Part shown: in pieces, positions 12,631-37,469 of the stretch | How the letters are laid out: the number at the start of each line of letters is the position of its first letter | How positions within the stretch are numbered: position 1 is the stretch's first letter | NCBI GenBank assembly: GCA_016177345.1 | Contig: JACOVM010000072.1 | Location: 1-38,733 of the forward strand | Length of the DNA stretch: 38,733 nucleotides | Direction of reading: 5' to 3' | Source: Candidatus Woesearchaeota archaeon | GTDB taxonomy: Archaea; Nanobdellota; Nanobdellia; Woesearchaeales; UBA12501 | Made by a program: the position numbers and the translations under genes | The notes under the pieces: model-generated | The model's database searches: none | What the model saw: the letters and a program-made list of their open reading frames with translations, nothing else | Told to the model about the DNA's origin: nothing

Positions 12631-12746
12631 ATTCAGGGCGCCGCCATGGTTTACGTTGAAAGCTCTCTTTTTCTCCCCACCCTGCCCGGGCGAGGTGGGG
12701 AGAAAAAGAGACCTAAACTTTGTTTAAGCACAGCGGCGCCCTGAAT
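12631..12746. repeat. intergenic compound hairpin (outer 14-bp GC stem, ~20-nt symmetric internal loop, perfect 17-bp polypyrimidine/polypurine stem)
   Basis: Outer stem: ATTCAGGGCGCCGC 12631-12644 pairs with GCGGCGCCCTGAAT 12733-12746. Inner stem: CTCTTTTTCTCCCCACC 12665-12681 pairs with GGTGGGGAGAAAAAGAG 12694-12710, with a 12-nt loop. Confidence 0.7.
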
Positions 12747-26484: not shown

Positions 26485-26742
26485 CTAATTAAGGTTTTTA
26501 TAAATATTTTTTCGATGCCCTATAACTGTCACTTTAATGGTGTTATTCATTTGATCAATGTCTGCAATAACCCGATAGTCTCCCACTCTCAATTTGTAAT
26601 CTTTTCTTCCCGTAAGTCTCTCAAAAAAATGGAAAGGACTTGTTTTTGTTGATATCACTTTATCAAAAATTCGTTCTTTTATCTCTTTTGGAAGTGTATT
26701 TAGGAGGTTAATTGCTTCCTCATCAAAAGTGATCTCATACAA
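26485..26742 (-). CDS. RelE/ParE-family toxin
   Basis: DYKLRVGDYRVIADID...IKVTVIGHRKNIY is the classical RelE/ParE C-terminal signature. Confidence 0.85.
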   Translation of the reverse strand: MYEITFDEEAINLLNTLPKEIKERIFDKVISTKTSPFHFFERLTGRKDYKLRVGDYRVIADIDQMNNTIKVTVIGHRKNIYKNLN

Positions 26743-26796: not shown

Positions 26797-27048
26797 TCAC
26801 AATCCAAGCCTCTTTCGTGCCTCTGATTCGGTTAGAAACTTTCCCTTTTTTATTCTTTCCCTTGCTTTTTCAATAGCTTGGATTGTTTCCTGGCTGAGTT
26901 CAGGTTCAGCTTTGCAAGTTTTAGCTATAAATACCACTTTTTTAATTACTTCATCATAGCTCTCATTCTTATATTCCCTAAATTGGTCTAAGTCTCGCTT
27001 TGTATTTTCATGGATTTTTAGAGTAGTTATCACATCCATTCTCATCAC
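26797..27048 (-). CDS. putative cognate antitoxin
   Basis: 83-aa ORF immediately upstream of the RelE-like gene on the same strand. It is small and charged, with the typical TA gene order. The family is not identified. Confidence 0.6.
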   Translation of the reverse strand: MMRMDVITTLKIHENTKRDLDQFREYKNESYDEVIKKVVFIAKTCKAEPELSQETIQAIEKARERIKKGKFLTESEARKRLGL

Positions 27049-27105: not shown

Positions 27106-28050
27106 TCAGCTCGGCCCATTCGTCACAACATATTCCCTCATTCTCTTGCGGAGGATACTAAATGAACGTTCGCTTTGCTCTTTTCTGTCACCGCGCTCGT
27201 GCTTGCGGTACTCGAAAGGCCCGTGCCTTATCATATCAGACGTGCTTCTTCCAAGCCAGTACATGTTCCATTGTTCTCGTTCAGGCCGAGGATCCTGGAA
27301 GAAGAGCTGGATTGGATTGGTGTCCAGCGCGTCCATAATCCATGCATTGTATGGTTCAAGATCTTGAGAGACAAGAAGCTGGTATGCCACAGTAAGTAAA
27401 TTGCAGATATCGGGATCTGCGCTGACAATTCGCACTGGCCGTCGTGGAAAATGAATTGCAGCAAATACTGCATCGGTAACAAGGCGTTCATCTGCTTCTG
27501 GTTCAGCATAAAAGACAGGCGGTTGCGCCTCATCAGGCCTTACTTTCTTGACTCGGCCTTTGTATTCTATCTTGACGATAAGGCGGTGTAGTTCTTTATG
27601 TTGCTGCTGGAGTTCTGGTGTACTTCCAGGGCGAAATTCAGCCGCACTTAAGTACATGGAAAGCAGTTGTCGGTACCATGCCTTAAGTGCAGTTTCTTCG
27701 TCGAGAGAATGATCTGGCGGTATGCCGAGCCTGTTGACTTTATCAACGTCAAGCTGAGTTAGTTTTTCGCTGAGCACGAGGTCTGCTCTTGTCAATTCAT
27801 GGGCAACTCCGCTGCTGATCAGCACGTGAGGGTGTGAGAGTACTTGTTCAAGAGCACCATTGAGCTGGAGAAGAGCGGAGATATCATCGCGAAGAAGGTC
27901 TCGATAGGATCCTGCAGTTGCTATTCTTTCAGTAAGTTGATAGGGAAGGAAAACATTCGTATCAAGAAACGTCAGGCCTGGATAATCAACAATACGTTCT
28001 AATGGCTGTAGAAGTTCAGCACCAAAAACTGGCTTTATTGCCGTGTCCAT
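27106..28050 (-). CDS. hypothetical protein with PIN-like acidic motifs and a large insertion
   Basis: FLDTNVF (first Asp), GVAHELT (Glu), RLVTDAVFAAI (Asp) and RIVSADPDI (Asp) occur in the PIN order. About 110 aa are inserted between the second and third elements. This is pattern-level only. Confidence 0.6.
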   Translation of the reverse strand: MDTAIKPVFGAELLQPLERIVDYPGLTFLDTNVFLPYQLTERIATAGSYRDLLRDDISALLQLNGALEQVLSHPHVLISSGVAHELTRADLVLSEKLTQLDVDKVNRLGIPPDHSLDEETALKAWYRQLLSMYLSAAEFRPGSTPELQQQHKELHRLIVKIEYKGRVKKVRPDEAQPPVFYAEPEADERLVTDAVFAAIHFPRRPVRIVSADPDICNLLTVAYQLLVSQDLEPYNAWIMDALDTNPIQLFFQDPRPEREQWNMYWLGRSTSDMIRHGPFEYRKHERGDRKEQSERSFSILRKRMREYVVTNGPS

Positions 28051-28228
28051 CTTGTGCGGAGATATTTATGCCTTTTAATGCCTTGCCTTTAGTGTGTGAT
28101 ACGTAGCGGATTCAGGCGCGTCCTGATATTTTAGTTTATTTTATCTATTTTCTAGCCTATCTTACCTGCCTGTCTTCTTGAATTTGATAAGTTGTCCTAT
28201 ATTATATTCCATATAGAAAATAATATTA

Positions 28229-28317
28229 CAAAAAGAAATCCTGACTCTCGACGGAGGCCCTTGTGAGGGTACTTTACCAAGCTTGGCGCTTTGGTGAAGT
28301 ATCAGGATTTCTTTTTG
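28229..28317. repeat. 89-nt compound hairpin at the left edge of the foreign island
   Basis: A perfect 16-bp outer stem: CAAAAAGAAATCCTGA 28229-28244 pairs with TCAGGATTTCTTTTTG 28302-28317. The inner hairpin TACTTTACCAA 28270-28280 pairs with TTGGTGAAGTA 28291-28301, with one T:G on the + strand. Confidence 0.7.
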
Positions 28318-28346
28318 TGGTCATTTCGTCGTAAGGCAGCTCCTTT

Positions 28347-28547
28347 CTAGTGGATGGCGAGGATATCAACCCTCTCAAGGACAAGTTCGTACCCCTGGCG
28401 TCCTTGCTTGATTCCCCTCACCATCCAAGCCCTGTTCGTGCCACTCATCGGAGTCAGGAATTGCTCTACGAACTCCTTGACTGCAGGATGGTGGTCTACT
28501 TCATGCTGGTCTCGAGCAATCGTTCTGCACAGGTCACAAGTGCACAT
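28347..28547 (-). CDS. small hypothetical protein (66 aa, N-terminal CxCxxC)
   Basis: MCTCDLCRTIARDQHEVDHHP.... AGGAG lies upstream of the ATG but only 2 nt away, which is suboptimal spacing. It sits at the distal end of the island. Confidence 0.35.
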   Translation of the reverse strand: MCTCDLCRTIARDQHEVDHHPAVKEFVEQFLTPMSGTNRAWMVRGIKQGRQGYELVLERVDILAIH

Positions 28548-29493
28548 AGCTCCTAGTTCCGTGGGCTTCTACTACGTTGGGCTTCTTTACTTCGCTTGCT
28601 TTCTTGTTTTTCCTTTCGTTCTTGTTCTTTACTGTACATCATCTACTTCAACAAGGTACGGGACCACCGAATGCGTACGCGGTGCGCTTAGGGGGAAAAA
28701 AGTACGCACTCGATGGTCCCGGTTTGGAGGGAACAACACTGTGTCGACAGCGCCATACTAAAGCTGGTGTTTTCTTTAGTTGTCGCACATCTTCACTGGA
28801 ACACCAACATGAGTAATAACTCCCCCATACTCATGGTTCCCTCCTGGCGTTCTGGATATGGTGACCGTTCACGCAATGCAACCCTTCTCCTCGGAGAAAC
28901 AACATCAGGATTACGTGAACGGTCATAAGGCAGCACCTGTTTTTTGGGTTGAACAACGACCAGCATACAGCGGTTGGCTGGACAGGTGCTGCCAACGAGG
29001 CCATCGAACCTGATAAAAGAGCCGCCCCTCCCCCTGGAAAAGATGGCGTTTTATCACCTCTGCTCGATGGCCTCGTAATCTGTTAATCTTCATCTTCTGG
29101 CCTGAGGGGCAACCAAGTCGGCTTTACGGAATTGGTAATGCACCTCGCTTGCTATAGGTTTAGGTTTTATCTTGGTTGCCCTAGGAGACTGCACCTGTCC
29201 AGGAAGATGACCCCCTGTATTCGTCATACCTAGACAGGTGCAGCCTACGAGACCATCGAACCCGCGACCGAAGGGTAGGTTATTGCGCAGGGATACGAGC
29301 TCGATGGCCTCGTAAAGCGGCTGTCCACGGCAAGAGGTGAAGCCCATAGCCTCGAGCACATGGACAGCCGCCGAGCGCTTTCCAAAGGAGACGGCAAGTA
29401 ACCATTGGCGGCGCTCTCTAAGGAAGACAGCAGGTGTTCCTCACTGAGGCTCTGGATTGAGGCCAGCATCATTGAGGGTGATGCCAACAACAC

Positions 29494-29595
29494 CTGCCGC
29501 CAGAGGAGCCCTCGACCTTACGCAGTAAAGCGCAATGCACGTTAATCCCTCGGGAAGATCGGCCGTGCAAGATTGGTCGAGGGCTCATCTGGAGT
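29494..29595. repeat. long hairpin repeat, copy 1 (downstream of the 481-aa ORF)
   Basis: The left arm CTGCCGCCAGAGGAGCCCTCGAC (29494-29516) and right arm TGGTCGAGGGCTCATCTGGAGT (29574-29595) form an 18-bp stem (29500-29517 / 29575-29592) with one G:A mismatch. Confidence 0.8.
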
Positions 29596-29926
29596 TTAGC
29601 ATGTTAGTGGGATGACTGCGGCAGGCACAGGCCAGTGAGCGCCCTCCCAGGACACCGGTTGTCTGTACCTGCCGCAGTCGGGCACAGTCATCATCCACGC
29701 GGGCAAGGGTTGGTGGTGATGACTGCTGGTTGTAGAGGCAAGTGAGGCGCTTGCCGAGAAGCGACAATTTGCTTGGGGCCAAGCCTTTGTCGTCCTGGAA
29801 GCGCCTCACCTGCGGTGCCTGCCGAAACGCATTACGTTCGCGTTTCACTCTTTCGTCTTAAGGGCGCACACCCGTCAGACGACGCATGGCAGGACTTTCA
29901 TGGCAACGCGGCAAGAGTAGGTAGGG

Positions 29927-29994
29927 GCCTCGGGCCACGATCTCATGCTCTTTCTAACTTCTTCTAGAAAGAGAATCAGATCGTGACCCGAGGC
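29927..29994 (-). terminator. long two-tier hairpin just 3' of the 481-aa ORF (terminator or processing candidate)
   Basis: A 17-bp stem (29927-29943 / 29978-29994, one G:U on the minus strand) encloses a 9-bp stem (29948-29956 / 29965-29973). No T-run follows it on the minus strand. Confidence 0.35.
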
Positions 29995-30004
29995 TTGGGG
30001 AGAA

Positions 30005-30016
30005 CTAGCTAGCTAG
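30005..30016. other. CTAGCTAGCTAG block (stop codon in all six frames)
   Basis: Three tandem palindromic CTAG units give TAG in each frame on both strands. The block lies 15 nt downstream of the ORF's own TAG (30034..30032). Confidence 0.9.
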
Positions 30017-30031
30017 CCGATGGTGGGCTGA

Positions 30032-31477
30032 CTAGGCGTTCTGCGGGGCGTGCTGCGCATCCTCGAACTCGAAGCCAGCGGCGAGCTGGAACTGCTCGAC
30101 GGGGATTCCGCGGATCGCGACGATCTGGCCGAAGGCGTTCCGCAGGGCGGCCTGGTCCTCGAGCTGTTCGGCGATCTGGGAGGCCACGCGGCGGACGTAG
30201 GTCTTCGGGTCCGTCACGTTCACCTTCATGATGCCGATGTTGAACGAGTTCAGGGCGACGTTGCGCAGGAAGCGCACGGTGCCGTCCTGTTCGATCTCGT
30301 TCTGCTCGAAGCCCAGCGCCTGGCAGATCTCCTCGACGATCTCCTGCTTGAACGGCGAGATCGCCAGGTGGATCCACTGCACCAGGGAGGCGAAGGCCTG
30401 CTGCTGCTTCCGGAGGTACCGCGGCGAGATCCACTGGCCCAGCAGGTAGATCGCCACGCCGACGTAGCCGTGGTTCTCCTTGCCGAACTGGATGGTCGCC
30501 TTGTTCTGGTCCTTCGTCAGCTCGGCCTTCACAGCGAAGAGGAACTTCTCGTAGCGGCCGTACTTGTCCATCTTCACCGGCGTGCCATCGCTGTCCGTGG
30601 GCTGGAAGCCCGACGGCGTGAGGTAGTCGGTGAAGGGGGTGGGGCTCTTCGTCGTGGCATGCGGCACCTTGAAGCCCAGGCCCTCGAGGCAGCTCTGGAC
30701 CGTGGCGATGGTGCCGGTGTTGCCGTTGAGGAGGACGACGCACGACTGGTCGATGCCGCAGTCGTTCGCCATCCAGCTCAGCGGGTTGTACGGCACGTAC
30801 ACCTCGATGCTGGTGAGCTCGCCGACGTTGTTGAAAGCCGCGAACGGCCGCACGTCGAACTTGCCCAGCTTCGCGTCACGGTAGTAGCCGCCGCTCATCC
30901 CGATGACCTGGGTGAGAAGCTCCCGCATCGCGTTCTGGCTGCCGTTCGTGGCCACGTTGCGCGTCACCGGCTTCTTCTTGCCGTTTGCCAGGTCGGTGGT
31001 CACGACTTCGAGGTGGGGCAGGCCGTCGACCGCGGAGACGAAAGTGGCGTCCTTCCGCTCCTTGGTCGCGGTGATGGTGGTGAGGCCGAGGGACTGGCGA
31101 TCGCCGTAGGTCTTGGACATCGCCTCCTGGATGGCGGTGATGTTGTCGCCGAAGGCCACGATGACACCGTCCTCCGAGGCGATGCTCGCCGGGTGGGGGA
31201 GAACGTTGCCATCCTGGAGGAGCTGCAGGCGGAACTGCTGGTCCGGCGTGAGGCCGTGCGACTTCGGGGGCTGCCGGTTGCCGGTGAAGGCCGCCATGAT
31301 CAGCTCCGAGGTGACCTGCTCTTCGGGGATGCCCAGCTCGCTGGCGATGGCCTGCTTGACGTTCGCATGGATCGTCGCCTTCTGCTGGGGGTTGAAGCCG
31401 TACTGCGTGATGTTGCGGAGGTTGCTCTGGGTACGCATGTAGCGTTTCCTTTCGAACTGCATTTGCTGCTTTTCCAC
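30032..31477 (-). CDS. hypothetical protein, GC3-saturated, family not recognised (start uncertain: GTG 31477, ATG 31462 or ATG 31438)
   Basis: This is the only one of the overlapping long ORFs here whose translation looks like a natural protein (balanced K/N/I/F/Q/D/E). 31 of its last 34 codons end in G or C. The antisense and out-of-frame ORFs are R/L/G/D/A/P-rich, as expected for shadows of a high-GC gene. Confidence 0.75.
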   Translation of the reverse strand: MEKQQMQFERKRYMRTQSNLRNITQYGFNPQQKATIHANVKQAIASELGIPEEQVTSELIMAAFTGNRQPPKSHGLTPDQQFRLQLLQDGNVLPHPASIASEDGVIVAFGDNITAIQEAMSKTYGDRQSLGLTTITATKERKDATFVSAVDGLPHLEVVTTDLANGKKKPVTRNVATNGSQNAMRELLTQVIGMSGGYYRDAKLGKFDVRPFAAFNNVGELTSIEVYVPYNPLSWMANDCGIDQSCVVLLNGNTGTIATVQSCLEGLGFKVPHATTKSPTPFTDYLTPSGFQPTDSDGTPVKMDKYGRYEKFLFAVKAELTKDQNKATIQFGKENHGYVGVAIYLLGQWISPRYLRKQQQAFASLVQWIHLAISPFKQEIVEEICQALGFEQNEIEQDGTVRFLRNVALNSFNIGIMKVNVTDPKTYVRRVASQIAEQLEDQAALRNAFGQIVAIRGIPVEQFQLAAGFEFEDAQHAPQNA

Positions 31478-31591
31478 CGCTAACTTCCAAAGCGGAAGCC
31501 CCTCCTGGATTTAATAGCAGTGGTGGAGACGACAGCTGCGTTTTCACGTCTTTTCACATCAATTCTTGCTTCTTATTCACCTACTGTGCAG

Positions 31592-31675
31592 CTGCCGCCA
31601 GATGAGCCCTCGACACGTTGCTTCCCGGTGCATGGCACTGGTGTGGGGAGAGCTGGTCGAGGGCTCATCTGGAGT
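31592..31675. repeat. long hairpin repeat, copy 2 (upstream of the 481-aa ORF)
   Basis: The left arm CTGCCGCCAGATGAGCCCTCGAC (31592-31614) and right arm TGGTCGAGGGCTCATCTGGAGT (31654-31675) form a perfect 17-bp stem (31598-31614 / 31656-31672). The arms match copy 1, but the loop differs. Confidence 0.8.
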
Positions 31676-31732
31676 GGGCTTCGTGAAGACAGCCCGAGAA
31701 GTACTACGGGGGGAAACTGAGGGGGTTGAGGA

Positions 31733-31930
31733 CTAGGTTGCGGGTTCGCTCTTGTCAGCACTCGTCACCTGGATCACGGTGGGGGTGACGACCTGATCAG
31801 GGCTGGGCGGCCAGGCCTGCGTCGTGGGCTCGAAGCGGGTCTGCCGTGCTTGGGTGCCGAGCGGGTTGGTCAACAAGTTGTTGAGCCACGATCCACTGGG
31901 CTGCTTCTTGTCAGGCGGCCTCGGAAGCAT
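31733..31930 (-). CDS. small Pro/Thr/Gln-rich hypothetical protein (65 aa)
   Basis: ATG 31930 is preceded by AAGGAGG with a 5-nt spacer (ACAAGGAGGTTCTGATG). It overlaps the upstream small ORF by 20 nt. Confidence 0.4.
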   Translation of the reverse strand: MLPRPPDKKQPSGSWLNNLLTNPLGTQARQTRFEPTTQAWPPSPDQVVTPTVIQVTSADKSEPAT

Positions 31931-32123
31931 CAGAACCTCCTTGTTCAGCCTTCTTCGCATTCATTCGCTGCAAAGCGATGGCGAGCTGGTTGAAGCCGCT
32001 GGACTTCGGGGTTGAAGAGGGCGTCTCGGTCACATCCTTGCTTCCGTCGCTTCCCTTGATGCCATCTCTGGATGCGTACTCGGTAGCCATGATGTGAGCG
32101 AATTCATCCGTTCGAACCTTCAC
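31911..32123 (-). CDS. small hypothetical protein (about 70 aa; start uncertain)
   Basis: GTG 32123 is preceded by TAGGAG with a 5-nt spacer. The alternative start is ATG 32090 (MATEYASRDG...). Confidence 0.35.
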   Translation of the reverse strand: MKVRTDEFAHIMATEYASRDGIKGSDGSKDVTETPSSTPKSSGFNQLAIALQRMNAKKAEQGGSDASEAA

Positions 32124-32292
32124 GCGATCTCCTACGAACAATAACAGTTTTACAGTTTTCAACGGAGCCTTACTACAGGGTTTTCCACGGTTCTCCGTCG
32201 TGACCAGTGGAAAAGGGCTTCTTCTCGAGAATACAACCTACATTAAACTACATCGCACTCGTCCTACACGCTATCTGTTTCAGAAAACAGGC

Positions 32293-34179
32293 TTATGAAA
32301 GCGTGCGTCCACGTGTTTCAGGGTTTTCCAAGAGAAGAGCTCCGCTAGGCGTTATGTGAATAATCTTCACCATACCTTTTTCGCTTCGCACTTCTTCTAC
32401 AGAAATTAACCCCAAATCTACCAATGACAGCTTTAGTTCGTTTCCTTTGCGGATTGACAAACAAAGTTGTTTGTAGATTTGCGTGGTGGCTAGATAGCCG
32501 GAATTTTGGCGTAGGGTTGCCAAAAATTCATGTTGTTGGTTGGTTAAGTTGTAGGAAAGGGATATTGGAATGGAGGTATCTTTATCGTTATCATCATCAC
32601 TAGCAACAGCAACATTATCATCATAAGTATTATCATGAACAATGCCTTCTGCGTGCTCTTGAATGTTTCGCAATGTTTCAACGTCATCGTTTGTTGCCAC
32701 TCTGCTGAGCTTGAATACCTTGTCCAGCTTTTCGAGCTGCCGCTGGAGCTTTTCTGTATCGCATGACTCTTGAAAATGCTTAAGCCTGCGATGGTCTTTA
32801 GCCTTTCCTTTCATCAGGGTGGAAAGCGCATCATCAGTGATGATATTCTTCTTGACGTCAATAAACGGTGCCTTGATGAGGAAAGGATTGTAGAATCGCT
32901 CTGCTAATTTTACAATTGCGCTGCCGACCGGGAGCATGGAGAAGTATTTTCGCTGCTCGCGCATTTGCATGAGGTTGGAGACACATTCTACATCTGCTGG
33001 AAGGATCTGCTGGAAAGCTATGTTGCAGGCAGAATTTCCGGCAACCGTGTCGCTGAGCTTAGAAATGTGCTGGTCGAGGCAGATTAAGCTAACGCCATAT
33101 TCCCGGATTTCCCGGTAAATCATATCGGTGATGCTTTCGGTGAGGAAGTTTGGCTTTTCTTTGAGAAAAATGTTGTGGGCCTCGTCAACAATGATGGCGA
33201 GCCTAAACTTGTTGCTTTCGTAGTTGTTTGCTTTCATCAGCTTGTACAGGTAGGTCAGGAAGAAGCTGGTGAAGAATTTTTTCTCGCTCGTGCCAAGATT
33301 ATGGAGTTCAAAGACCACTTGCTTATCCATAATCTCTTCAACAGTGTACGCGTCTTCTCCCTTGTAATTGATCGCCTCACCGAAGTCTCCATAGGTAAGG
33401 GAGGAGGCGATTCGAAGAGCGCTTTCAAGCCATTCTGATTCTCGGCCATGGCGCCGCGCACTCATATCTGCTTCATAATCTTCAAGGCGATCTTTGACTT
33501 GGTGCCAGGTTGGATAATTCTCGCTGCCTTCATAGACGCCAAAGTCCTTAAATGCCCTATCGAGTGTTTCGCGCAGCAGCTTATGGACGCCGAAGCTTGC
33601 AAAGAATGCGTCATTGATCAGATCGCACAAAATGTTAATCCATTCCTTCGCCCCAATATTTTTTGGTGGGCGATTAATGTTGAGCTTGAAGTGGTTGCTG
33701 ACTCGTTCGTTGCCGACAGTAAAGCAGTGAACGCTTTTGTCTTTATTCATGAGCTGGCGAAAGCTTTTCTTCCAATCAAATGCGATGAAAGGCTTTCTCT
33801 TCATGACAAAATTGCCGAGAAGATGGAATGCAAAGGTTGTTTTTCCGCTGCCGCTCATGCCAGAGATGCAGACGTGTCTTGGCCAGTCATTTTCCCGCAG
33901 CCCAAATTCATACAGGTTTGTTTTGGCGTACAAGATCGTGCCGAGAGGATATTCTCCTGCCACGACACCTTGCCTTGGTGGCTCAAGCATGATGTCCTCA
34001 TCAGAAAGAAGGCCTTTGTTGAGGTACTTGTGGTAGAGGGAATGAAGCGCTTGCTCAATTTCGATCTTGCTCTCCACTGAATCAGCAAGGCGGTACTTGA
34101 GATAGATCTGGTCGATTTTCTCGCCGAAGACTGGCTTCAGCTTCTTGCAGACTTCCTCGGTAGTGAGCGCACGTTCCAT
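32293..34179 (-). CDS. HerA/FtsK-superfamily (DUF87-like) P-loop ATPase with a C-terminal winged-helix-like domain
   Basis: Walker A is ISGMSGSGKTT and Walker B is RLAIIVDEAHN, followed by LICLDQH. The last ~90 aa (EFLATLRQNSGYLATTQIYKQL...) look wHTH-like. Confidence 0.8.
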   Translation of the reverse strand: MERALTTEEVCKKLKPVFGEKIDQIYLKYRLADSVESKIEIEQALHSLYHKYLNKGLLSDEDIMLEPPRQGVVAGEYPLGTILYAKTNLYEFGLRENDWPRHVCISGMSGSGKTTFAFHLLGNFVMKRKPFIAFDWKKSFRQLMNKDKSVHCFTVGNERVSNHFKLNINRPPKNIGAKEWINILCDLINDAFFASFGVHKLLRETLDRAFKDFGVYEGSENYPTWHQVKDRLEDYEADMSARRHGRESEWLESALRIASSLTYGDFGEAINYKGEDAYTVEEIMDKQVVFELHNLGTSEKKFFTSFFLTYLYKLMKANNYESNKFRLAIIVDEAHNIFLKEKPNFLTESITDMIYREIREYGVSLICLDQHISKLSDTVAGNSACNIAFQQILPADVECVSNLMQMREQRKYFSMLPVGSAIVKLAERFYNPFLIKAPFIDVKKNIITDDALSTLMKGKAKDHRRLKHFQESCDTEKLQRQLEKLDKVFKLSRVATNDDVETLRNIQEHAEGIVHDNTYDDNVAVASDDDNDKDTSIPISLSYNLTNQQHEFLATLRQNSGYLATTQIYKQLCLSIRKGNELKLSLVDLGLISVEEVRSEKGMVKIIHITPSGALLLENPETRGRTLS

Positions 34180-34261: not shown

Positions 34262-34765
34262 TCATTGTGTTAATATCTTGTCAAGCATGTCAAGCCTGCT
34301 TTCTTTTTCCTTGAATTCCTTGACTCGCTCGCGCAGCTCGTTCTTGAGTTTGGCAATGTCCTTCCAGTTTTCTACTTCTTCTTCGATCATAAACCGCTCA
34401 AGCTCGATCTGCTTTGTTTTAAGGTTGAGAAGGTCGTGCTTGAGTGATGCATCGTCGTTGCTGGTTGCGCTGAGCTGCAGCTCAAGATTATTGAACGTGT
34501 TTAGCATCTTCTCAATTTTTTTTGAGATTTGAGAGGTGAGATCATCTCTTTTTTTGATGAGGTCTTCAATGTCCTCAATGACGCCTTTGATGGAATCAAC
34601 TTTTACGGTCTTGAGTGATTGAAACACGTCATCTTTCAGCTCGTCTTTTGAAGAATAAGAAGAACGCTTCGTGGATGCGAAAGAAGATTCTACTGTCTGA
34701 TAAACTTTTCTATGGTCCTTCCCCAATAAGTCAAGGACTTCCAACTCTGGAATTCTTTCTGTCAT
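34262..34765 (-). CDS. coiled-coil protein upstream of the HerA-like ATPase
   Basis: 167-aa ORF with long heptad-like K/E/L/D-rich stretches. It is on the same strand, with an 82-nt gap to the ATPase gene. Confidence 0.65.
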   Translation of the reverse strand: MTERIPELEVLDLLGKDHRKVYQTVESSFASTKRSSYSSKDELKDDVFQSLKTVKVDSIKGVIEDIEDLIKKRDDLTSQISKKIEKMLNTFNNLELQLSATSNDDASLKHDLLNLKTKQIELERFMIEEEVENWKDIAKLKNELRERVKEFKEKESRLDMLDKILTQ

Positions 34766-37250: not shown

Positions 37251-37469
37251 ATGCCAAAATACGTTGTTGATAGAAAAGAAGGATTGATGAAGAGCGGTAG
37301 GGAATACAAGGTAAAGGAAGTGGATGCGAAGGCTTCTGCCGCTAATCCCTTTATGGGTGCCGGTGGAGAAGGACTTCGACTCGTGACCGACTTGGACTTA
37401 TCGCGAGGCCATCTGTTTAGTGGAAGTATTGGCAAAGATGGTAAAGTAAAGTACGTCAAAAAAGCATAA
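37251..37469 (+). CDS. small conserved-looking hypothetical protein (72 aa)
   Basis: MPKYVVDRKEGLMKSGREYKVKEV.... A TATA-like TATACGCTATAAGG lies about 20-30 nt upstream of ATG 37251. The ORF-track start at 37242 is GTG. Confidence 0.5.
   Translation: MPKYVVDRKEGLMKSGREYKVKEVDAKASAANPFMGAGGEGLRLVTDLDLSRGHLFSGSIGKDGKVKYVKKA

Follow-up and report, generated by a model that had tools for sequence, protein, structure and literature searches.

A fast-diversifying, GC3-extreme orphan gene with a hairpin tail beside a HerA/VirB4-like ATPase gene in Woesearchaeota

Is a stretch of DNA whose composition departs abruptly from that of its surroundings a foreign insertion, an artefact of assembly, or a resident part of the genome in which it lies? 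The question is raised by a GC-rich stretch of about 3.9 kb (positions 28320 to 32250, hereafter the island) on contig JACOVM010000072.1 of a Candidatus Woesearchaeota archaeon (assembly GCA_016177345.1), the full 38,733 nucleotides (nt) of which are referred to here as the window. It is situated between the genes for a HerA/VirB4-like P-loop ATPase and a protein of 314 amino acids (aa), and holds, on the minus strand, a large open reading frame (ORF) made almost entirely of G- and C-ending codons, followed by a run of hairpins. In a preliminary description, made from the letters of the sequence, it had been taken for a foreign insert between host genes. Comparison with related loci leads to a different answer: the locus is very probably resident and conserved, neither foreign nor chimeric. 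More tentatively, it can be read as a recombining, hypervariable locus of a small clade of Woesearchaeota (DPANN archaea), yielding a long messenger RNA (mRNA) built for uninterrupted transcription and stability.

The compositional anomaly itself is real, with a G+C content (GC) that passes from about 0.44 to 0.64. In 500-nt windows the contig ranges from 0.35 to 0.52, climbs stepwise through 0.50, 0.55 and 0.58 to 0.64-0.65 at 30001-31500, and is back to 0.47 by 32001. The large ORF (30032..31477, minus strand) has GC fractions of 0.60, 0.39 and 0.95 at the first, second and third codon positions (GC1, GC2 and GC3), against a GC3 of 0.27-0.54 (mean 0.43) in the 19 other genes of the window. 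Its amino-acid make-up is without such a skew, as had been observed at the outset, and is that of a mid-GC genome (glutamine 8.3%, lysine 5.4%, asparagine 5.4%, isoleucine 5.8% and phenylalanine 5.0%). Codons ending in A or T are nearly missing (TTC 24/24, ATC 28/28, AAC 26/26, CAG 39/40 and GGC 32/35); the four-fold boxes divide about equally between C- and G-ending codons, GGG is rare (1 of 35 glycine codons), and CTA, TTA and TCA are never used. Three-base periodicity sets in at the ATG of the gene and ends at its stop, being found otherwise only in the small ORF sp2. The achievement of this codon bias is a total purge of A/T tracts from the ORF, in the 1.4 kb of which no A/T run of four or longer occurs, whereas host genes have 32-40 per kb. 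On the coding strand, runs of T5 or longer are likewise missing from 32522, inside the ATPase gene, to 28701, a distance of 3.8 kb.

A second ORF of 477 aa (30050..31483, plus strand) lies antisense to the first and is codon-aligned with it, the antisense first position corresponding to the sense third. It stays open because CTA, TTA and TCA are unused in the sense ORF, and as a gene it was rejected in favour of a shadow ORF, since about 95% of its codons would have to begin with G or C. Of the earlier remarks on open frames, that on the shadow ORF holds, whereas the statement that every frame across the gene is open does not, long ORFs being present in four of the six frames. In a contig from a sister species (L008, 5692-6198), the public gene call picked the antisense shadow ORF over the real sense ORF, an annotation hazard for this GC3-rich family. 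The start of the sense ORF was in turn corrected: the orthologue in the sister-species contig L009 has an in-frame TAA upstream of the ATG at 31438, from which the protein is 468 aa and not 481 aa long.

That these features come from a chimeric assembly, from contamination or from a synthetic, codon-optimised construct is effectively refuted, even though a GC3 of 0.95 combined with a non-GC amino-acid composition, a six-frame NheI-type stop linker (CTAGCTAGCTAG), perfect hairpins and strong Shine-Dalgarno (SD) motifs do resemble an engineered cassette. Positions 37374 to 28268 of the window were recovered at 100% identity without gaps in the Logan per-run assembly of SRR12113383 (L001), and so was the sequence in that of SRR12113384 (L002, and L003 for positions 31238 to 26863); positions 34265 to 31209 were likewise reproduced at 100% without gaps in the per-run assemblies. 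The junctions are therefore identical in two independently assembled runs, in agreement with the preliminary view that this is no end-to-end chimera. The ends of contigs L001 and L004 consist of untrimmed Nextera adapter (CTGTCTCTTATACACATCT) with no alternative sequence, which accounts for the break points near 28.1-28.27 kb. In addition, diverged natural relatives with the same neighbours exist in at least four other metagenomes or metagenome-assembled genomes (MAGs), and in L005 the stop motif and the first hairpin have been kept despite substitutions. The check on a vector or phage origin that had been proposed came back empty, the island DNA having no match in the phage and plasmid collections.

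The claim that the island is foreign finds no support among its relatives. A sister species represented in three further metagenomes (L008, L009 and L013) has an ATPase 94% identical to that of the window (95% over aligned codons), and a Woesearchaeota MAG (L006) one that is 72% identical. Beside the same ATPase gene, these relatives share a common order: the coiled-coil gene, the HerA/VirB4-like ATPase gene, small SD-led ORFs (homologous to sp1 and sp2), a long hairpin with a GGCAGC..CTG motif, a TTAAATCC box, a small covarying hairpin and the GC3-rich gene. Conservation in three lineages extends to non-coding DNA, namely to the junction past the ATPase gene and to the 5' leader; between L009 and the window, the 260 nt upstream of the ORF, with the hairpin module, the promoter-like box and the leader, agree at about 90% of positions. 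The loci of more distant Woesearchaeota have different content following the ATPase gene, and none of the loci compared showed a clean empty site.

Neither does the codon bias behave as a relic of a donor genome. GC3 is 0.93 in the homologue of L006, whose host genes have 0.47-0.76, and 0.91 in that of L005, so that values of 0.95, 0.93 and 0.91 are found across three lineages whose proteins are 25-35% identical; among all known homologues (25-58% aa identity) it is kept at 0.91-0.95 in hosts that differ in background GC. Given this protein divergence and the synonymous divergence (dS) of 0.54 that separates the ATPase genes of even the two closest species, synonymous sites must have turned over many times, and a GC3 of at least 0.91 in such diverged homologues means that the bias is actively maintained. 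It is also bounded by the ORF. In the adjacent hairpin array the paired bases have a GC of 0.60 and the unpaired bases one of 0.46, against 0.39 for host non-ORF DNA, and the bias must thus be upheld at the codon level; regional mutation or GC-biased gene conversion was rejected, as neither can explain 0.95 at third positions next to loop bases at 0.46. mRNA secondary structure was rejected as well, since the ORF folds no better than its shuffled versions (z -1.6 to +1.6).

The view that GC-biased gene conversion at a recombination hot spot, and not selection on the mRNA, brought about the GC3 excess as a side effect is accordingly left very improbable. It would be in keeping with the mosaic of identity between the sister species, in which the 3' end of the ATPase gene (0.97-0.98) and the N-terminus of the ORF (dS 0.17) are less diverged than the ATPase gene as a whole (dS 0.54), with the even use of C- and G-ending codons, and with the mildly elevated GC of the flanks. 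A conversion tract, on the other hand, would hardly account for a GC3 that leaps to at least 0.95 at the ATG and ends at the stop, for loop bases of low GC only a few dozen nt away, for GC1 and GC2 values that are not raised despite very fast amino-acid change, or for the avoidance of GGG, which a pure GC drive would not produce.

The protein encoded by this gene is an orphan, as first supposed. The 468-aa product has no match in Pfam, PHROGs, NCBIfam, PADLOC or the sequences of the PDB, nor in phage records by tblastn, and when 5.8 billion proteins were searched through a word index, neither the single sequence nor an alignment profile brought up a homologue other than the protein itself. Exhaustive phmmer searching of 1.84 billion representatives gave two remote relatives only: P0002, of 422 aa, on L005, and P0003, a fragment of 228 aa at a contig end of the MAG 'Candidatus Woesearchaeota archaeon NC_groundwater_271' (L006/L007). 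Protein-pattern scans for further loci retrieved the known MAG from genome contigs, and nothing from viral and metagenome contigs. A hydrophobic segment is lacking (maximum Kyte-Doolittle value over 19 residues, 1.11) and the N-terminus, MRTQSNLRNITQYGFNPQQ, is polar. The AlphaFold2 model, built from a three-sequence alignment, is unusable (predicted local distance difference test 35.6, predicted template modelling score 0.25).

Over its first 187 residues, the homologue of the sister species is 58% identical to the 468-aa protein. In the comparison with the L009 species, the ATPase gene has a nonsynonymous divergence (dN) of 0.026 and a dN/dS ratio of 0.05, codons 1-75 of the ORF have a dN of 0.125 and a ratio of 0.72, and codons 76-187 have a dS of 0.49, a dN of 0.55 and a ratio of 1.12. 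A conserved N-terminal segment of about 75 residues is therefore followed by a remainder that diversifies at a dN/dS near 1. At the nucleotide level, the same comparison gives a mosaic: about 0.88 over the ATPase gene, 0.97-0.98 at its 3' end, 0.53-0.66 in sp1, 0.80-0.92 from sp2 through the N-terminus of the ORF, and 0.58-0.69 over the rest of the ORF. From such alignments, the locus appears to be a recombining and hypervariable one with conserved 'handles'.

The non-coding parts of the unit are as distinctive as the gene (Table 1). Upstream, the promoter-like and leader region contains a TTAAAT box at 31509-31514 and a covarying mini-hairpin (CUUCC/GGAAG) at about 31484-31499, while GAAAGGAAAC stands 6 nt ahead of the ATG; the region was aligned across four lineages, and its promoter and 5'-untranslated roles are presumed ones. 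Further upstream stands a hairpin module, of which three more copies lie inside the 3' array and which is also found 5' of the gene in L006 and L009. It comprises the stem GAGCC(C/A)T(C/T)GAC/GTC(G/A)A(G/T)GGCTC followed by GGCNGCASCTG. Over six copies, its 11-bp core helix is paired in 100% of cells with 5 of the 11 pairs changed on both sides, and the three cells that depart from Watson-Crick pairing are all G·U on the coding strand. A covariance model scores the true copies at 64-89 bits and look-alike palindromes at 23 bits or less, and found no copy in the more distant Woesearchaeota loci.

Downstream, the six-frame stop motif that had been pointed out is present and unique in the window, where 0.04 occurrences are expected. 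The three-frame stop reads GGCTAGCTAGCTAG in the window and GGCTGACTAGGTAG in L005, with one stop per coding-strand frame in each, and the 5' arm of the first 3' hairpin is kept in L005 as well, although the protein encoded there is only 24-27% identical. The conservation of the two elements marks them as natural and selected, and not as a synthetic linker. The ensuing hairpin array, delineated by folding of the minus strand with a span limit of 130 nt and by a global fold, is real and exceptional: over 28.15-30.0 kb the fold z-score averages -4.3, compared with -0.2 in the part of the window that lies beyond the island, and 11 of the 18 longest local inverted repeats of the 38.7-kb window sit in the island. 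It shows no codon periodicity. Two repeated stems occur solely inside the island, the other 13 hairpins being unique sequences. Folding of the array on the minus strand gives 41 G·U pairs, as opposed to 22 for the plus strand, and for 12 of the 17 hairpins the minus-strand form is the more stable one; this asymmetry is modest evidence for an RNA of the same sense as the ORF. Oligo-T is where archaeal RNA polymerase terminates, and since the gap in coding-strand oligo-T extends up to the last hairpin, the array is probably transcribed together with the ORF. No Rfam family reached its gathering threshold in the window, where the E-value mode gave only sub-threshold look-alikes of miRNA hairpins, and the Rfam scan of the related loci returned nothing but one tRNA in L025. 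Hairpin-pattern scans of metagenome contigs found one true relative (L013) and ten unrelated GC-rich palindromes, and those of viral contigs unrelated palindromes only.

Table 1. Coordinates of the genes and non-coding elements of the locus in the window.
Feature	Position	Strand	Remarks
167-aa coiled-coil gene	34262..34765	-	Constant upstream partner of the ATPase gene
628-aa HerA/VirB4-like P-loop ATPase gene	32293..34179	-	Pfam DUF87, E 1.5e-7; C-terminal tail resembling a winged helix-turn-helix
Small ORF sp1, 70 aa	31911..32123	-	GTG start preceded by AGGAG; direct sequence reading with L006/L009 counterparts
Small ORF sp2, 65 aa	31733..31930	-	ATG after AAGGAGG; GC3 0.80, codon periodicity
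5' hairpin-module copy	31585..31672	-	17-bp perfect stem CCAGATGAGCCCTCGAC/GTCGAGGGCTCATCTGG, then motif CGGCAGCTGCA; covariance model 84.8 bits
Promoter-like and leader region	31439..31545	-	Four-lineage alignment; GCAGCTG motif
468-aa orphan gene (P0001)	30032..31438	-	GC3 0.95, no A/T run of four or longer, hypervariable past residue 75
Stop motif CTAGCTAGCTAG	30005..30016	.	Stops in all three frames of both strands; 15 nt past the TAG of the ORF (30032-30034)
First 3' hairpin	29927..29994	-	29 bp, free energy -49 kcal/mol
Array of 17 contiguous hairpins	28659..29994	-	43-119 nt each, 14-38 pairs, 0-19 nt apart; 1.3 kb
Further module copies (three)	29486-29596, 29230-29317, 28978-29080		Inside the array
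First coding-strand oligo-T (T6) since 32522	28696..28701	-	Within the last array hairpin; presumed end of the transcription unit
66-aa ORF, N-terminal CxCxxC	28347..28547	-	Preceded by AGGAG; GC3 0.63; coding status uncertain
AT-rich 91-nt hairpin	28228..28318	.	17-bp perfect outer arms; T5 on both strands

Hairpins of this kind may also be thought of as acting in the DNA: in single-stranded or cruciform form they would be recognised or processed by a protein of recombination, replication or translocation (e.g., the ATPase or the 314-aa protein), so that the locus would be one of cassette replacement without an RNA tail. The stems are long and nearly perfect, their sequence is conserved around loops unrelated in sequence and length (41, 57 and 60 nt), and the adjacent, partly palindromic motif (GCAGCTGC / GGCAGCAGCTGCC) resembles a protein-binding site. 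Moreover, direct-orientation copies of the module bracket the ORF, with arms that can pair across 2.0-2.1 kb (I7, I9), one copy stands upstream of the presumed promoter, and recombination breakpoints fall near the conserved blocks. DNA-level action is nonetheless rather unlikely in view of the strand preference of the G·U pairs, which are about twice as frequent on the coding strand and account for all three non-Watson-Crick cells of the module, the exact coincidence of the array end with the first coding-strand oligo-T, and the lack of a recognisable recombinase or nuclease family nearby.

The nature of the ATPase gene matters for a related proposal, by which the island would be a site-specific mobile element or provirus remnant with a GC3-rich, oligo-T-free style of its own, integrating or being exchanged downstream of the HerA/VirB4-like gene, with the 468-aa protein as a structural component. 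The HerA-like label given at first to the ATPase was upheld by the DUF87 match, and the closest named models are CedD (E 3e-16), VirB4 (2.5e-9) and CedB (2.4e-8), all of them far under their curated cut-offs (for instance 59 bits vs 600). With 863 homologues at E <=1e-10, mostly 50-60% identical, it is a vertically conserved core gene of Woesearchaeota and Nanoarchaeota and forms the conserved left flank of the locus; ribosomal protein S10 and EF-1alpha are encoded 3-9 kb upstream of it in three loci (L011, L024 and L025). Against a mobile element stand this vertical conservation of the ATPase gene, the conservation of junction and leader in three lineages, and a bias that is codon-specific and not regional. 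No integrase, transposase, Rep, reverse transcriptase or capsid family was detected in any ORF with Pfam, PHROGs, NCBIfam and PADLOC, in accord with the preliminary reading. The window holds no tRNA, inverted repeats at the edges are at chance level, and the protein family is absent from IMG/VR contigs and phage records. An 18-nt inverted repeat at the edges of the island (I15) was rejected, its complementarity of 78% being like that of several chance pairs. On balance a mobile element or provirus remnant is unlikely, although it would accommodate the unrelated GC3-enriched genes downstream of the orthologous ATPase gene in L011, L024 and L026, the mosaic divergence between sister species, the tendency of the relatives' contigs to break off inside the region, and a weak PHROG 'terminase' match over the P-loop region of the ATPase.

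The surroundings of the orthologous ATPase gene in more distant Woesearchaeota are worth describing in their own right. In L011 (13600-21902), a zone of at least 8 kb that starts 1.7 kb past the ATPase gene has many small genes for secreted or membrane proteins with a GC3 of 0.8-0.93 (EF-1alpha, 0.39), an intergenic GC of 0.50 vs 0.33, and a single T5 in 8.3 kb vs 24 in the preceding 13.6 kb; the contig ends inside it. This zone has the same 'style' as the island of the window, on unrelated proteins and in a distant Woesearchaeote. After the ATPase gene of L024 (4933-13174) comes a GC-enriched gene for a major facilitator superfamily transporter, with a GC3 of 0.59 in a host of about 0.25, and after that come Mre11-like and Rad50-like genes, neighbours that hint at a link between the ATPase and the processing of DNA ends. 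In L026 (11950-16936), a gene-poor 4.9 kb between the ATPase gene and PolD has an ORF of 154 aa with a signal peptide (GC3 0.66 vs about 0.30 in the host), several hairpins of 15-18 bp and raised fold z-scores. In L025 (12700-14789) and L010 (13482-14197), the ATPase gene is followed by genes for prepilin-like proteins (N_methyl, PilX_N) or small proteins with two transmembrane segments and preceded by long runs of small same-strand ORFs without family matches, surroundings that suggest an apparatus akin to pili, conjugation or DNA uptake.

A wider reading would see in these loci a distinct class of recoded genes, with almost no codons but G- or C-ending ones and free of oligo-T, beside a VirB4/Ced-like translocase in Woesearchaeota; in the window, the tail of 17 stem-loops and the repeated hairpin modules, which resemble protein-binding sites, would belong to it. 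Their message or product would work outside the ordinary cellular context, for instance by surviving a nuclease- or tRNA-driven shutdown (a codon-gated regulon), or by being packaged or exported to the host cell of the episymbiont with the hairpins as packaging or handling signals. It stays in consideration because the same signature is present on the unrelated secreted-protein genes after the ATPase gene in L011 (GC1, GC2 and GC3 of about 0.5, 0.3 and 0.9), and is judged distinctly improbable.

The reading preferred here, that of a resident hypervariable locus with a long and stable message, brings the features of the unit together as follows. The unit would yield a long, uninterrupted and long-lived mRNA. 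By stripping A/T tracts from it, G- and C-ending codons would rid the message of oligo-T termination signals, of TATA-like sites within the gene and of AU-rich targets for nucleases. Ribosomes, in whichever frame they leave the stop-poor ORF, would be released by the three-frame stop before they could unwind the tail, and the stem-loop tail, ending at the first oligo-T in 3.8 kb, would block decay in the 3'-to-5' direction. The product may be an abundant, exposed or antagonistically co-evolving protein, encoded at a locus of the replacement type, and may work with, or be handled by, the adjacent ATPase.

Several points weigh against this proposal and keep it tentative. High expression and mRNA stability are read from the design of the unit. 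C- and G-ending codons are used about equally, and EF-1alpha of other Woesearchaeota has a GC3 of only 0.39 and 0.25, so that ordinary selection for tRNA adaptation is not an obvious cause of the bias. For the module copy on the 5' side, which precedes the presumed promoter, no role as a 3' stabiliser of the 468-aa gene is possible, and stems of 13-30 bp that are close to perfect are commoner in DNA palindromes than in RNAs shaped by evolution. The relatives' contigs all end inside the GC3-rich gene, before the right flank and the 3' array; the array is accordingly known from one organism, and the junction on the side of the 314-aa gene is confirmed in that same organism only. Lastly, the 468-aa protein has neither a signal peptide nor a transmembrane segment, and exposure at the surface would need an unconventional route.

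The remaining genes of the neighbourhood add detail to this picture. A homologue of the coiled-coil gene lies directly upstream of the ATPase gene in L006, L008/L009, L010 and L011/L012 by tblastn, and the 167-aa protein itself gave no significant family match in library searches. The acidic linker of the ATPase (DDNVAVASDDDNDKD..., window 32565-32669) is hypervariable with indels between the sister species (identity 0.53), and the 240 nt past it are 97-98% identical, suggesting a recent recombination tract. The small ORF sp1 has an N-terminus, VKVRxD...TEYxxRxD, in common with L006, a hypervariable middle part and 57% identity to its L008/L009 counterpart by tblastn. sp2 is 83% identical at the amino-acid level in L008/L009/L013, and its N-terminus, MLxRPxxKK, recurs in the third small ORF of L006. 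No counterpart of the 66-aa ORF was found in any related locus retrieved. With the AT-rich 91-nt hairpin the GC-elevated stretch comes to its right-hand end; beyond it, the sequence upstream of the 314-aa gene is AT-rich. For the 314-aa protein (27106-28050, minus strand), which had been labelled PIN-like, no match was obtained in Pfam, PHROGs, NCBIfam or PADLOC, so that the label finds no support there. Its gene was also considered as an orthologue of the 283-aa gene after the ATPase gene in L011; the two share no similarity and the candidate was rejected. Just downstream of the 314-aa gene lies a probable type II toxin-antitoxin pair (26485-26742 and 26797-27048, both minus strand), one protein of which, of 85 aa, is RelE/StbE-like (TIGR02385, E 1.4e-3, under the cut-off), its partner having 83 aa. 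The strongest fold signal of the whole window (z -10.6) comes from an AT-rich intergenic gap, in which a nested, GC-rich hairpin occupies 12631-12746 (about 116 nt, with arms of 21 and 27 nt); this hairpin has no Rfam match and is no copy of the island module.

The wider meaning of the locus is that an extreme compositional 'island' need not be foreign. A GC3 of about 0.95 has been kept in genomes whose own GC3 is 0.43-0.6, across lineages with saturated synonymous sites, which implies strong selection on those sites of a kind not readily put down to tRNA adaptation. Where an annotation pipeline takes such a region for horizontal transfer, or calls the antisense shadow ORF as in L008, it will mis-annotate the locus. 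In uncultivated DPANN archaea, a fast-diversifying orphan protein and a conserved hairpin module that is new have their place next to a core VirB4/HerA-like ATPase gene, and offer a concrete candidate locus in symbionts whose host and virus interface is almost unknown. Taken together, the absence of A/T tracts from the ORF, the stop in every frame and the stem-loop tail of 1.3 kb amount to a testable proposal for a processive and stable archaeal mRNA.

How, then, does the locus compare with known systems? That its layout corresponds to no catalogued element, as had been stated at first, is borne out by the tests of membership. For integron attC sites, no IntI integrase and no site bounded by RYYYAAC ... 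GTTRRRY was found in 28.0-32.4 kb on either strand, and a search for CRISPR or tandem arrays (TRF) returned only three trivial two-copy repeats. A classical genomic island or prophage would share the abrupt compositional contrast and the orphan genes. It would differ in the synteny across lineages and the long-maintained third-position bias seen here, and in the absence of an integrase, att repeat and tRNA: no integrase, recombinase or transposase was recognised in the island ORFs, no tRNA or tmRNA in the window, and the border repeats are at chance level. For a provirus, there was no capsid or virion match (PHROG, Pfam, PDB sequences and phage tblastn) and no relative in IMG/VR. The literature on Woesearchaeota with HerA, or on DPANN with GC3, yielded nothing relevant.

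Likeness to the Ced/Ted DNA-import systems and to conjugative ATPases of the VirB4 type is limited to the neighbouring ATPase, for which CedD, VirB4 and CedB are the best named matches; its scores are far under the cut-offs, and no CedA-like membrane or pilin genes are present at the locus in the window. Ambigrammatic narnaviruses have, as here, a codon-aligned full-length antisense ORF spanning the gene. The antisense ORF of the present locus is an automatic by-product of the avoidance of A-ending codons and stops where the GC3 bias stops.

Bacterial repetitive extragenic palindromic sequences (REPs), each only about 35 nt long, recur throughout the genome and are tied to a transposase, RAYT, and 3' stem-loops can stabilise mRNA. 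As with REPs, their mosaic composites (BIMEs) and 3' stabilisers, stable stem-loops here follow one another directly behind a gene, on the strand that is transcribed, and an obstacle to 3' exonucleases is a plausible role for them. Unlike REPs and BIMEs, it consists of 17 mostly unique hairpins of 43-119 nt that are confined to the locus within the 38.7-kb window, with neither RAYT nor TnpA. Library scans for IS200/IS605, REP/RAYT or miniature inverted-repeat transposable elements found no TnpA, TnpB or RAYT protein, and the repeated stems are limited to the island. The 468-aa protein family and the hairpin module are both undescribed, and extreme synonymous recoding, the all-frame stop and the tail of 17 hairpins are what sets the locus apart.

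The nearest likeness is to replacement-type flexible islands and variable surface-protein loci, such as sap of Campylobacter fetus and slp of Lactobacillus, in which a conserved 5' region and an anchoring domain go together with a variable remainder. Differences are evident: a Sec, twin-arginine (Tat) or class III signal peptide or a C-terminal anchor was not found in the 468-aa protein, and a surface location would be a matter of analogy; the composition is extreme in GC3 and not AT-rich; the protein is an orphan of about four known lineages; and no silent cassettes were seen. What is shared with such loci is the fixed position, the atypical composition, the conserved 5' non-coding region and N-terminus, the mosaic recombination and the breaks in assembly. 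The position is fixed by the conserved left flank, the right flank being seen in the window only. Between the sister species the ATPase is 95% identical at the amino-acid level (dN/dS 0.05) against 58% for the ORF (1.12 past codon 75). Judged by these sequence comparisons, a hypervariable locus of the replacement type is the only class among those considered whose testable hallmarks are found here.

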